A stretch of 64,000 nt of DNA from Turneriella sp. (GTDB lineage: Bacteria > Spirochaetota > Leptospiria > Turneriellales > Turneriellaceae), in NCBI GenBank assembly GCA_965279515.1, contig CBDIID010000003.1:2624001-2688000 (forward strand), in the 5' to 3' direction. How positions within the stretch are numbered: position 1 is the first letter of the stretch; each line of letters opens with the position of its first letter. The notes under the pieces were generated by a model. That model worked only from the letters and a program-made list of their open reading frames with translations, was not told the DNA's origin and did not search any database. Both the position numbers and the translations under genes were made by a program. This document shows, in pieces, positions 45,621 through 49,653 of the stretch.

Positions 45621-46058
45621 TTACCACCTGGCGCCCACCAACACGGCCAAGGCATTCCGCTCGATGTCCGCATCGGAAACCCGCCGGCGCTTCCCCGACA
45701 CCAGCCGCGAACGAAAGATGCCCGTCACATCGTCTTGAAAGTAGCGCAGCTCGGCAGAAAAGCGTTCTTCTGCTGGTGCCAGCCCGTAGCGCCGCCACTT
45801 GCGGCTCGCATCGATGCAGTAAAGGTGCCACTTGCCGTCTTCGTACGAAAACTTCGCCGCGTCGCGGCCGGTCAAATCGCCGTTCTCCGCCACGAACTCT
45901 TCCGCGATGACAAACGTGTTACCGCGCCTGAACCAGTAGATGCGGTCCTCTGCCTTGCCACGTCTTTTCTTTTGCGCATGTTGCACGTACGCGTCGAGTT
46001 GTGCGGAGACAATCGCCAAGAGATCCGCTGAAATAGTTGGTCGAAAAAAAGTTAGCAT
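45621..46058 (-). CDS. DUF3024-like protein (copy A)
   Basis: W.LYC.DASRKWRRY...DD.TGIF; paralogue of 47184-47549. Confidence 0.75.
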   Translation of the reverse strand: MLTFFRPTISADLLAIVSAQLDAYVQHAQKKRRGKAEDRIYWFRRGNTFVIAEEFVAENGDLTGRDAAKFSYEDGKWHLYCIDASRKWRRYGLAPAEERFSAELRYFQDDVTGIFRSRLVSGKRRRVSDADIERNALAVLVGARW

Positions 46059-46078
46059 CAGCGATCTTCCGTTTTTCG

Positions 46079-46348
46079 CTACTTCGGCAAAGGAATCGCC
46101 CCGAACTGTTTTTCGTAGCCGGCCATTTGCTCCGTCAAAATCCTGGCAAGCATCACCGCCGTCTGCGGGCTGAGGCGCAGGTTCAATGCGCCCTTGAGTT
46201 CATTCTTCGAGCTGACCAGCATGGCGCTGAGTTCGACTTCGAAGGCATTGACGTTCACCTGGATCGTGTTCGCGTAGAATTCGGGAATTTGCTGCGCGGG
46301 TGGTTGGGGCTCATGGTCTGTTGTTCTGCGTTTGGGGGTTGTACTCAT
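46079..46348 (-). CDS. DUF3467-like protein (copy A)
   Basis: FYAN..QV....FE..L, LRLSPQTA..L..IL......YE.QFG.I. Confidence 0.8.
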   Translation of the reverse strand: MSTTPKRRTTDHEPQPPAQQIPEFYANTIQVNVNAFEVELSAMLVSSKNELKGALNLRLSPQTAVMLARILTEQMAGYEKQFGAIPLPK

Positions 46349-46355
46349 TTTTACC

Positions 46356-47072
46356 TCAGGGTTTCACCAGCTTACCTGCCGGTGTATTGAATTTTGGATC
46401 GGGATTTTTGTCAGTGCTCAGGATATCAAATGCGGTTTGGCCTTTAGCATTTTTGAGGCCTTTATCCGCTCCCTGCTTCAGTAAAAGCCTGATAATCTGT
46501 ATATTGCGGGGAAAAGCTTCAAATGTAATCGGTTTCACCGCAGACATGAGCGCTGTCTCTCCGTCCTTATCCTGATAGTTTGCCGGTGCTCCCATTTTTA
46601 AAAGCTTTTCCGTGACTTGTGGATAACTGCTTCCAGCGGCGGTGACCAAAAGGTCGCCTGCGTCCGGTTCGTTGAAATATCCCTCAGGTAATTGCGGGAT
46701 CAGGTACTGCGCAACGGCTTCACAATCTTTGTAGGGTTTACGGTCTGCATAAATAACAACGATACCTCCCTTGCCCAATGCAATCCGAAGAGGAATTCGC
46801 CCGCGCCCATCCTTTTCATTCAACAAAAGTCCTTTTGAAACCAGAAACTTCAGCATCGGTAAATTGCATTCCTCTGCAGCGATATGGGCCGCCGTGCTGC
46901 CATTGGGTGTTTTAGCGTTCACGTCAATACCCGCTTCGAGATTTTTTTTAACGATATCCAACTGCCCTTGATGGACGGCTTTTATGTATTCATATTCAGG
47001 GGGCCGGTCTCCCGCGAACGCGGTGCTCATTACCGCGAAGAAAACAACTAAAAATGGCATGCATCGATTCAT
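46356..47072 (-). CDS. exported ankyrin-repeat protein, candidate immunity protein
   Basis: Signal peptide; GSTAAHIAA, GETALMSA, GQTAFD repeats; AT-rich; AAGGAG RBS. Confidence 0.85.
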   Translation of the reverse strand: MNRCMPFLVVFFAVMSTAFAGDRPPEYEYIKAVHQGQLDIVKKNLEAGIDVNAKTPNGSTAAHIAAEECNLPMLKFLVSKGLLLNEKDGRGRIPLRIALGKGGIVVIYADRKPYKDCEAVAQYLIPQLPEGYFNEPDAGDLLVTAAGSSYPQVTEKLLKMGAPANYQDKDGETALMSAVKPITFEAFPRNIQIIRLLLKQGADKGLKNAKGQTAFDILSTDKNPDPKFNTPAGKLVKP

Positions 47073-47183
47073 ATTGACTCCTTAAATGGTCAGACTTTTA
47101 TACTAATACGTGCGAAACGGGTTGTTCATATGCAATAATTTCCGCCTGTCTACCCCTCCCCATTGACATGGAGAGAGGTGGGG

Positions 47184-47549
47184 TTAGCCACGAAAGATGC
47201 CGGTCTCGTCCGCAAGCCAATGCCTGAAAACAGCATCAAAGCCCTTCTCCGTCTTCGCCGGCACATACCTTCGCCAGGTACGGCTCGCATCCAGACAGTA
47301 GAGCAGCCAAAAGCCGTTGTCGAACTCGAACTTGCCCGAGTCGCGCCGGGTTAATTGGCCGTCTTGTGTGACAAACTCTTCGGAAAGTATCACCGTCTTG
47401 CCCTTCCGTGCCCAGAAGAACCTGCTTGGTATTTCTTCATCATCCGCGGTGTTTTTGCGCTTTTTCTCTACCTGCTTACAATACGCTTCCAGCCGTTTCA
47501 TCGCATCGGCGAAGGCTTCTTTCGGAATTGCGGGCGCGAACAGTTGCAT
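47184..47549 (-). CDS. DUF3024-like protein (copy B)
   Basis: W.LYCLDASRTWRRY...DETGIFRG. Confidence 0.75.
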   Translation of the reverse strand: MQLFAPAIPKEAFADAMKRLEAYCKQVEKKRKNTADDEEIPSRFFWARKGKTVILSEEFVTQDGQLTRRDSGKFEFDNGFWLLYCLDASRTWRRYVPAKTEKGFDAVFRHWLADETGIFRG

Positions 47550-47562
47550 GGGTTACCTCTGC

Positions 47563-47841: not shown

Positions 47842-48411
47842 TTATTTTCCTTTTGTTTTGGCGGCTTTGCCCGTTGCCTTCGGCCCAGTTTCAGCGGCAG
47901 CCATGACGATCACAGGCTTTAGATCTGCATCCTGTGTAGGCCAATCGCCGATAGGCCAAGCAATGATCGGGAGAATAGGCACAATAACACCTAGGATTAC
48001 CATACCAACACTTAAGGATTTTTCAGGCACTTCAAAATTTAATTTTGTGGTCTTATTTTCTTCTATGTCAACTGCGAAGAGATAATTTGCGTAAACGTAT
48101 CTGTAGCCAATCCGAAACGGTCTCGAAATTTCCCGGCGCACCTGAAGAATTAACTGGCGTTTACCCGCTTTCATAGGGATCTTATATGCTTCATCATCGC
48201 CGAAGCCATCTTTAATCAGCGCTTCACCGTCGGCATGCAATAAGACCTGCCATTTCTCATCGTAACCGTCGATCTGTTTCCCATTAGGAAGTTTGATTTC
48301 CAGCATGCCGTGCGGCTGTGCTGTGATTGCCTTTTGTTTTTCCTCCGACATGCGGTAGGTAGCGCATTGTAGCATGGTTAGACCTGCTATTAAGATCAGA
48401 AACTTCTTCAT
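47842..48411 (-). CDS. hypothetical lipoprotein, candidate immunity protein
   Basis: MKKFLILIAGLTMLQC lipobox-like; C-terminal hydrophobic segment; AT-rich. Confidence 0.75.
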   Translation of the reverse strand: MKKFLILIAGLTMLQCATYRMSEEKQKAITAQPHGMLEIKLPNGKQIDGYDEKWQVLLHADGEALIKDGFGDDEAYKIPMKAGKRQLILQVRREISRPFRIGYRYVYANYLFAVDIEENKTTKLNFEVPEKSLSVGMVILGVIVPILPIIAWPIGDWPTQDADLKPVIVMAAAETGPKATGKAAKTKGK

Positions 48412-48453
48412 CTAATTCTCCGTTGGTTTGTATATTTGTATCTTATGATACCG

Positions 48454-48645
48454 TTAGGTTTGGGCTGGCATCAGACGCAGGTTCAGTGCGCCCTTGAGCT
48501 CGTTTTTGGAGCTCACCAGCATGGCGCTGAGTTCGACTTCGAAGGCGTTGACGTTCACCTGGATCGTGTTCGCGTAGAATTCGGGGATTTGTTGCGCGGG
48601 TGGTTGCGGCTCGTGATCGGTTTTGCGGCGTTTGGGGGTGCTCAT
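48454..48645 (-). pseudogene. 3'-truncated DUF3467-like gene (copy C)
   Basis: First 58 aa match copies A/B, then unrelated MPAQT*. Confidence 0.75.
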
Positions 48646-48675
48646 GCTTATTTTTTTCCTTTCTTATTTCGAAAA

Positions 48676-48879
48676 TTATTCAGGGAATACATAGTTTTTT
48701 ATTTTAGGTTCCAGTGCTTTTTTTACATTCTCTGGATTTTCCTCGTATGCTATAAATTTATGTCCTTTTTCTCTTAGGAATTTTATTACTTTCTTTCGCG
48801 CCGCATAGTGCTCCCGCATACGGGGTTTTTTCTGTTGCATTTCTTCACCGTTCGGCCATTTGAATTTCATGATTTTCAA
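48676..48879 (-). CDS. small basic hypothetical protein or gene remnant
   Basis: 67-aa AT-rich ORF overlapping the upstream gene end. Confidence 0.45.
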   Translation of the reverse strand: MKIMKFKWPNGEEMQQKKPRMREHYAARKKVIKFLREKGHKFIAYEENPENVKKALEPKIKNYVFPE

Positions 48880-49285
48880 TTAGAAAATTCAAGGAATGTT
48901 TGAATTTCTCCGTCTGGTCCAAGCCAAACGCCTTATAGTTAAGCTTAATTTGCAGATTCCAAAATACTCGATCGCTCATGCACACCGATGCCGTTAAAGG
49001 GAAAGTGATGGAGACACCCGTCACCGCCGCCGTCGAGCGAAACATGGATTTTCTCACGTTAGTTTCTGTTTCTGGCACACCACAGGATAGCGAAATCAGC
49101 TGCGACTGGGGTTGCTGCACATATAATTCAGTTTCAACGTCTTGCACAATGAATTGACGAAAATCTGACCCCCTACGTAACCATTTAATCATATGGGAAA
49201 TTGAATCAGCAGATTCAAAACCGGTAATCTCTACAACATGATTAGCGTGTTGGGAAATAATTTGGGTGACTTTTGAGTTATTCAA
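48845..49285 (-). CDS. hypothetical protein, candidate orphan immunity
   Basis: TTG start after GGAGG; AT-rich. Confidence 0.6.
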   Translation of the reverse strand: MNNSKVTQIISQHANHVVEITGFESADSISHMIKWLRRGSDFRQFIVQDVETELYVQQPQSQLISLSCGVPETETNVRKSMFRSTAAVTGVSITFPLTASVCMSDRVFWNLQIKLNYKAFGLDQTEKFKHSLNFLIENHEIQMAER

Positions 49286-49308
49286 TGAAAACCCTCCGAT
49301 TTCCTTAA

Positions 49309-49653
49309 CTACATGATCCGTGGGACTCCGGGGACCCTATCTGCGTGATTTTCTCCCATAAGGATAAGGTCAAAGCTGAATTCCATTTCCTCGGCTGTCT
49401 TCTTTAAGAAATCAGTTTCTCCTGAAAAATACGGCGCCTCCGCATTTAGTACCTTTATCATGCTGCGAATCTCATTCAACGCAGCTTTAGGTATGAGCTT
49501 TTCGGATTGCAACATGACCGTCAATGTTTTAATTCCCAGCAGAATATTTTGGAGTAAATGCCTATCAACAGCTTTCCCTATCTGAAGTTTCGTTAAAGCT
49601 TCTCTCATCTTACTGCTGACAACAAACCATTCCTTTTCAAATTCTAAGCTCAT
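49309..49653 (-). CDS. probable cognate immunity protein
   Basis: 114-aa helical ORF with ATGA overlap on the giant gene's stop. Confidence 0.72.
   Translation of the reverse strand: MSLEFEKEWFVVSSKMREALTKLQIGKAVDRHLLQNILLGIKTLTVMLQSEKLIPKAALNEIRSMIKVLNAEAPYFSGETDFLKKTAEEMEFSFDLILMGENHADRVPGVPRIM

Follow-up and report, generated by a model that had tools for sequence, protein, structure and literature searches.

Introduction

Why does one small conserved gene recur between unrelated genes behind a giant toxin gene? This question is raised by a 64,000-nucleotide stretch of Turneriella sp. DNA (assembly GCA_965279515.1, contig CBDIID010000003.1, positions 2,624,001 to 2,688,000), hereafter called the window. 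The host genome has 4.9 Mb and a guanine-cytosine (GC) content of 0.53. On the minus strand, the window carries a giant polymorphic toxin gene (49650..64000; 4845 residues from stop to stop, the frame running beyond the window end) and behind it an array with three copies of DUF3467: copy C, whose 3' part is lost (48454..48645), and the intact copies B (47563..47829) and A (46079..46348). An earlier note on this DNA had proposed that DUF3467 and its neighbour DUF3024 form a repeated module, which serves as a 3' recombination anchor and/or as an addiction or chaperone module. Our results show that the usual place of this DUF3467 branch is directly behind the immunity gene of spirochaete giant toxins. 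We consider it fairly probable that DUF3467 is a dispensable accessory protein whose gene doubles as the 3' homology arm for the addition of cassettes.

Position of the DUF3467 Genes

The Pfam check confirmed both DUF3024 genes (42.6 and 33.2 bits; cut-off 24.9). DUF3467-A and -B, which the earlier note had also named, stayed just below the threshold (24.7 and 23 bits; cut-off 25), and DUF3467-C had no Pfam match. Relatives that are 85-90% identical to the DUF3467 copies carry PF11950, and the ten best Atlas matches with a family all agree. Judged by similarity, the window copies are a divergent branch of DUF3467 (PF11950). In a tree of 57 rows, 17 DUF3467 copies from toxin loci were split from 13 housekeeping copies with support of 100/99; the alignment has few columns, and the inner forks were not resolved. 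The housekeeping DUF3467 of the host genome stands alone (G000:C3:3166697-3167011, L001; 80 bits). This type was present in most genomes of the order and was not found in family f8.

The class-level survey covered 190 genomes. By sequence and tree, 24 matches in 18 genomes were assigned to the DUF3467 toxin branch, and the remaining matches were of the housekeeping type. The 24 copies were drawn from related genomes and are not independent samples; 18 of them lie on a stretch with homology to a giant gene or a displaced tip, 16 downstream of it and 2 about 5 kb upstream. Four further copies follow an immunity-like gene without a giant match (G035, G161, G173, G175), and two could not be judged. 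The gene before DUF3467 often encodes a membrane protein of one family, with the conserved C-terminal tail WxKxPDW..I..A..RAEEN. Five of the seven loci from one search for relatives were contigs already in the set, and none of these entered the count a second time. We treated L050 and L051 as one strain, additional to the 24 copies. The relatives found included Turneriella and Leptospira records, and a metagenome scan gave one locus with the same sequence as G008.

The membrane family itself, which is immunity-like and has no Pfam match, was seen behind Gly/Ala-rich tips in 17 of the 190 genomes (for example L050:3807-4427, L037:12454-13131, and L059:18201-18791). Two genomes (L098 6757-9182, L099 7345-11938) have the branch DUF3467 upstream of the giant gene, where it follows two AcrB-like genes and a ParA-ParB pair.

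A wider sample comprised 401 genomes of the phylum, and 19 of the stronger DUF3467 matches from other classes were fetched. A gene, usually AT-rich, ends directly upstream of DUF3467 in 12 of these 19 stretches, and a tip-like frame stands before 11. These upstream genes often encode SH3, MORN, TPR or DUF6585 proteins. A distant DUF3467 was also observed on an Anoxybacillus plasmid (L111 4238-7375), where, within a prophage-like region, it is flanked by the genes of a LexA-like repressor and a DUF2283 protein.

The earlier note had expected the module in the neighbourhoods of TIGR04388 genes. The survey bore out the link of the DUF3467 branch to giant toxins and not a general link to TIGR04388: among the 104 genomes of family f8, TIGR04388 was found in 79, the DUF3467 profile in 1, and DUF3024 in 2. 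Because the giant cassettes of G011 and nearly all genomes of the TIGR04388-rich family f8 do without the branch, we regard it as dispensable. In the accessible parts of the papers searched, no link of DUF3467 or DUF3024 with a toxin system was found, in agreement with the earlier note; the supplements of PMC3482391 and of a bioRxiv toxin survey could hold neighbourhood tables. The mention of DUF3024 in this literature was a table row for a gene of phage 933W.

The Giant Toxin and Its Presumed Immunity Gene

As far as residue 4412, the trunks of the window giant and of the second giant of the same genome are 70% identical; their tips differ. Four relatives have the trunk in common with the window giant up to residues 4306-4515 and carry different tips. 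The tip of the window giant (49650..50070, minus strand) is a probable ADP-ribosyltransferase-like domain. It matches Pfam DUF7587 (E 3.3e-6), contains an R ... STT ... E pattern, which we take to be an ADP-ribosyltransferase-like motif, and weakly matches 9zdm_B, "Probable Rhs-family protein" (E 0.0096). Five homologues of the tip, with 31-40% identity, lie on plasmids. The toxin or processing domains at the tips were DUF7587 in the window, PT-HINT in the close relative G008, and Ntox30 in the more distant giant of G163; most other tips scanned had no Pfam match. Displaced tips occur in G008, G011, G136, G163, and G177. The window array contains orphan genes and no displaced tip.

The gene at 49309..49653 (minus strand, 114 residues) overlaps the toxin stop codon and is presumed from its position to be the cognate immunity gene. 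Family searches gave no convincing match for it, and it does not resemble the gene that follows the tip homologue in Priestia.

The trunk is shared, the tips differ and the genes downstream are variable, as expected for the tail of a polymorphic toxin locus, which is how the array had been read. On these features we class the window giant and its tail, with predicted toxicity, among the polymorphic toxin systems as PMC3482391 defines them. The cut-off of TIGR04388 (Lepto_longest; 45 bits) was not reached by the window giant (16.3 bits) or the second giant (23.2 bits), and only the N-terminal stretch matched. The second giant locus (G000:C3:2445179-2464046; L008, L009) has a different tip, papain-like by eye, and ends at tRNA-Arg(CCG). 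Upstream of the locus are two genes that look AcrB-like by eye.

Truncated Copies and Growth of the Array

Four copies of DUF3467 lack the 3' end, namely window C and those of G136, G161, and G166. The similarity of all four ends within the codons R-[LM]-S-P (break motif NxR|[LM]SP). Window C is cut after ALNLRL, and its similarity to the intact copies stops near 48471. The truncated copies come from four genomes of two families, and the breaks lie within about 5 codons, with junctions that differ by up to about 7 bases. For uniform breaks in a detectable window of 25-45 codons, the chance of four breaks within 5 codons is 0.004-0.02; this statistic is post hoc and assumes that window, and a short fragment is more easily missed. 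Across the truncation of C, contigs from two public runs agree with the assembly at every base. These contigs are not independent support because they may be the source data of the assembly.

In G136, the cut DUF3467 continues in frame into a tip-like piece; a membrane gene comes next, and then an intact copy, and the cut and intact copies have 53 identical bases in common up to the break. The layout of the window is the same, with the cut copy C, a 17-bp element and a lipoprotein gene, and the intact copy B. Three damaged copies (G175, G178, G341) keep both halves, with insertions in the quarter of the gene where the break lies, and P0009, available as protein only, ends a few residues past the break. 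The break lies in the stretch of lowest third-position divergence (0.29-0.33, codons 49-66). The same short repeat element was observed within the broken DUF3467 of G175 and G178 (L107 240-700, L108 11200-11700).

Past the variable tip and immunity genes, DUF3467 is the first conserved sequence on the 3' side, and in this place it probably acts as a downstream homology arm. Foreign DNA with one or more new genes followed by DUF3467 would pair at DUF3467, and its other end would be joined illegitimately. Each event would add a gene together with a foreign DUF3467 allele, and the resident copy could stay behind, cut at NxR|[LM]SP. In the window, the 17-bp element, the lipoprotein gene and DUF3467-B would have entered at copy C, and the ankyrin gene with DUF3467-A would have entered between the two DUF3024 genes. 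The proposed 3' recombination anchor is kept for DUF3467, whose position and link to giant loci fit it, and given up for the two-gene module.

Several points weigh against this explanation. The order and direction of the events are inferred, and no recombination event was observed. The longest identical runs among the window DUF3467 copies are 20-38 bases, which is a short arm, and no intact copy lies downstream of the cut copies of G161 and G166 on the available stretch. Giants without the DUF3467 branch occur at the second locus, in G011, and in nearly all of family f8, and most Leptospira genomes with TIGR04388 also lack the branch. Outside the class, the whole order of giant, gene and DUF3467 was seen in G437 only (1 of 19, with direct giant homology); 4 of the 19 DUF3467 genes stand alone, and 3 lie at contig ends and could not be judged. 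The immunity role of the intervening genes is presumed only, and the structural matches of DUF3467 are weak (Z at most 6.3, below 8).

The DUF3467 Protein and Other Causes of the Break

The model of DUF3467-A consists of three strands and one helix, with a mean predicted local distance difference test (pLDDT) score of 86.8. The best structural matches were COMMD (Z 6.3, root-mean-square deviation (rmsd) 3.0, 58 aligned), Pur-alpha (Z 5.3), and PC4 (Z 4.2); Foldseek gave no match for the model at E 0.001. COMM, Pur-alpha, and PC4 folds work as intertwined dimers. DUF3467 is predicted to be a protein of the cytoplasm whose three strands and helix fold in the PC4/Pur/COMM manner. The ratio of non-synonymous to synonymous divergence (dN/dS) was 0.05-0.14 for the window copies and 0.03-0.14 in the 19 of 28 DUF3467 pairs that were not saturated; these values come from short genes and are noisy. 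The low dN/dS indicates that the protein is under purifying selection. Most likely, DUF3467 forms small oligomers and assists the toxin system as an accessory factor, useful but dispensable.

In the model, the break falls exactly where strand 3 (residues 51-59) gives way to the helix (residues 61-82). Selection on the protein might therefore set the break. Only loss of the whole helix would be harmless, partial helices would poison the oligomer, and further copies would be kept chiefly for dosage or as another immunity factor. The strong purifying selection and the frequent neighbour from the WxKxPDW...RAEEN membrane immunity family agree with this idea. However, selection alone leaves the new genes behind the cut copies unexplained, the membrane family also occurs without DUF3467 (G011), and DUF3467 also follows unrelated genes. 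We regard it as an unlikely explanation of the array, and a preference in recombination and selection against partial helices both fit the shared break. Slightly less likely is a broader proposal, in which DUF3467 would be a nucleic-acid-binding or adaptor protein and its gene the one defined insertion site for incoming cassettes of toxin, immunity and defence genes, and the arrays would be an integrase-free counterpart of integrons for polymorphic toxin loci across the phylum.

The sameness of the break in four genomes of two families, together with the end of P0009 and the clustered insertions of G175, G178, and G341, could also point to a dedicated capture site in DUF3467, at which a recombinase or nuclease acts on NxR|[LM]SP and genes are inserted as in integrons. 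However, third codon positions vary across the break in 21 aligned copies, the junctions differ as described, and no inverted repeat was found at the break. A general repeat scan of 45400-49800, with no attC model, found no recurring inverted repeats. No integron integrase in the genome reached the cut-off (TIGR02249, best 93 bits vs 265), and none of the four tyrosine recombinases of the genome is near the locus, the nearest lying ~93 kb from the giant gene. Because third positions vary and neither an integrase nor an inverted repeat was found, we consider a recombinase site improbable.

DUF3024

DUF3024 directly follows DUF3467 in 3 of the 24 copies, so that a fixed unit of variable gene, DUF3467 and DUF3024, as had been claimed, is not upheld. 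The adjacent pairs occur twice in the window, with gaps of 13 and 20 bp in the same orientation, and once in G008, where the adjacent DUF3024 is broken; G008 holds both separate and adjacent copies. In G007 and L050/L051, the order is giant-immunity-DUF3467-lipoprotein-DUF3024. In G001, two DUF3467 copies are followed by other genes to the contig end. The second giant locus ends with four exported-protein genes and then DUF3024-B and DUF3024-A types in tandem, with no DUF3467; remnants of another DUF3024 and, over 45 bp, of the giant gene also lie there. The family survey of 20 genomes gave 11 DUF3024 matches in 5 genomes, of which 8 were at giant loci and 3 at one common non-toxin site (G004, G005, G007), with no branch DUF3467 there. 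No DUF3024 was found in the 13 genomes of family f9, or near DUF3467 in any stretch examined outside the genus.

The two DUF3024 partners had been described as strongly diverged, and their identity is indeed 52/116. DUF3024-A (45621..46058, minus strand), of the long type, ends the array and is 81% identical to its type at the second locus; DUF3024-B (47184..47549, minus strand), of the short type, is 89% identical to its own. The identity between types is 43-44%, and the A/B split predates the loci. DUF3024 weakly matches the PADLOC candidate PDC-S43 (E 1.5e-6 and 4.7e-5), and in the fold searches nothing matched it clearly (the best Z was 7.0, with an rmsd of 5.1). The best reading of DUF3024 is a passenger at the array end that is specific to the genus; it may be a defence gene, and it is also a possible second homology arm. 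A defence-like gene cluster was also seen directly behind DUF3024 in G007 (L037 1650-10561), which by eye encodes nucleotide-modifying enzymes, a helix-turn-helix protein, a metallopeptidase, a papain-like protease, and a P-loop nucleoside triphosphatase.

An addiction (toxin-antitoxin) or chaperone pair of DUF3467 and DUF3024 that stabilises the array seems quite improbable to us. The co-oriented adjacency, the purifying selection on both genes and the PDC-S43 match would suit such a pair, but adjacency is limited to the three copies, DUF3024 occurs without branch DUF3467 at the second locus and in G004, G005, and G007 and is missing from family f9, and the partners are of very different age (89% vs 44-45%). 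Each gene occurs without the other, and this part of the earlier note is unsupported.

Origin of the DUF3467 Copies

The protein identities of the DUF3467 copies (A-B 78/88, A-C 54/57, B-C 53/57) and the mostly synonymous DNA differences (A-B, 31.5 synonymous vs 10.5 non-synonymous) agreed with the first description. Copy C had been thought to be a mosaic of A and B; its pattern of A and B sites was not significant (runs test, p = 0.16). The synonymous divergence (dS) of A-B, 0.94, exceeds that of B and G001a, a copy from another species (0.60), and C lies at 0.51 from the same copy; as for dN/dS, the short genes make these values noisy. The DNA flanking the copies does not align. Because the window copies are as diverged as copies of other species and their flanks are unalignable, separate acquisition fits better, and the copies were probably acquired separately and not duplicated in place. 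That a local segment was simply duplicated in tandem and then decayed, as three similar genes in the same orientation within 2.6 kb might suggest, is very improbable and largely refuted by the unrelated genes between the copies, the dS of 0.38-0.94, the unalignable flanks, and arrays that differ in every genome compared.

Other Genes and Elements of the Array

The gene order of the earlier note was recovered in full, with all ten open reading frames (ORFs) in place on the minus strand. Behind the presumed immunity gene lie a 146-codon ORF (48845..49285), which may be a decayed gene, and an AT-rich ORF of 64-67 codons (48676..48879); no relatives were found for either. The lipoprotein gene (47842..48411, 189 residues, hydrophobic leader and Cys16) and the gene of an exported ankyrin-repeat protein (46356..47072, 238 residues) are orphan-immunity-like cassette genes. 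A 45% homologue of the lipoprotein sits between DUF3467 and DUF3024 in L050/L051. Between each DUF3467 and the gene ahead of it lie 30 bp (C), 12 bp (B), and 7 bp (A), which matches the claimed 7-30 bp. The intervening genes are AT-rich (GC 0.35-0.48 vs 0.56-0.59 for DUF3467) and variable, as had been noted. No informative NCBIfam match was obtained for the DUF genes, the tip or the hypothetical genes, and PHROGs gave one weak unnamed match, for DUF3467-A.

The 17-bp element GGTATCATAAGATACAA (48436..48452, minus strand) has exactly 3 copies in the genome (at most 2 mismatches), all within the two giant loci, and also occurs behind the immunity gene in G008 and G011. It contains a small inverted repeat and stands ~25-35 bp before exported-protein genes in the giant loci of three genomes (other sites: L008 10633-10649 and 12281-12297; L040 3150-3166; L042 9959-9975). 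It probably serves the incoming exported-protein gene as a promoter or operator. In a scan for sigma-70 promoters and terminators, it was not among the sites flagged, and the number of these was no higher than chance. A reading as a dif or attC site, by comparison with consensus sequences, was dropped because just one half-site is conserved.

A short dispersed repeat (47152..47179) has three further copies in the genome, and a dispersed intergenic repeat at the array end (45508..45605) has matches at three other genome sites. Five tRNA genes lie at 43194-44032, ~1.6 kb past the array end, with a solute-binding protein gene between.

Comparison with Known Systems

These results give the widespread, uncharacterised DUF3467 family its first consistent context in spirochaetes. 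The branch marks a little-described group of toxins of 3,500-5,000 residues that TIGR04388 misses, and it can be used as a marker for new tips and immunity genes, most of them without a Pfam match. The shared breakpoint makes the growth of orphan toxin-immunity arrays, a long-standing question, testable at one spot.

Like PC4/Pur-alpha and COMM proteins, the DUF3467 model has a three-strand meander and a C-terminal helix (Z 6.3-5.2). Unlike COMMD, it has no helical N-terminal domain, and Z stays below 8. Myxococcota genes for COMMD-like proteins likewise cluster with secretion genes (PMC13392464, on prokaryotic COMMD-like rings). The PADLOC entry PDC-S43, to which DUF3024 has a weak profile match, is a candidate system only.

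The TIGR04388 giants of Leptospira, including LA_3725 with PT-HINT (PMC4751964), are likewise giant and exported and have variable tips. The window giant has weak N-terminal similarity to them, and its close relative carries PT-HINT; however, it stays below the cut-off, and TIGR04388 genomes almost never carry the DUF3467 branch.

For the type VI secretion system (T6SS) effector-immunity arrays of Vibrio cholerae with the Tap-1 adaptor, the same kind of mechanism has been proposed (PMC5361080). There, the anchor is upstream of the effector and breakpoints vary widely, whereas here the conserved gene is downstream and 4 of 4 truncations coincide. The polymorphic toxin systems of PMC3482391 resemble the system described here: the N-terminal trunk is constant and the tip variable, the toxin gene precedes the immunity gene, and orphan genes and displaced tips follow. 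Their described anchor is the constant 5' gene body, whereas here a distinct conserved gene, placed 3' of the immunity gene, recurs within the array and is cut at a common point. Overall, the array is a known kind of locus, to which a dedicated downstream accessory gene, new to the accessible parts of the papers searched, is added.

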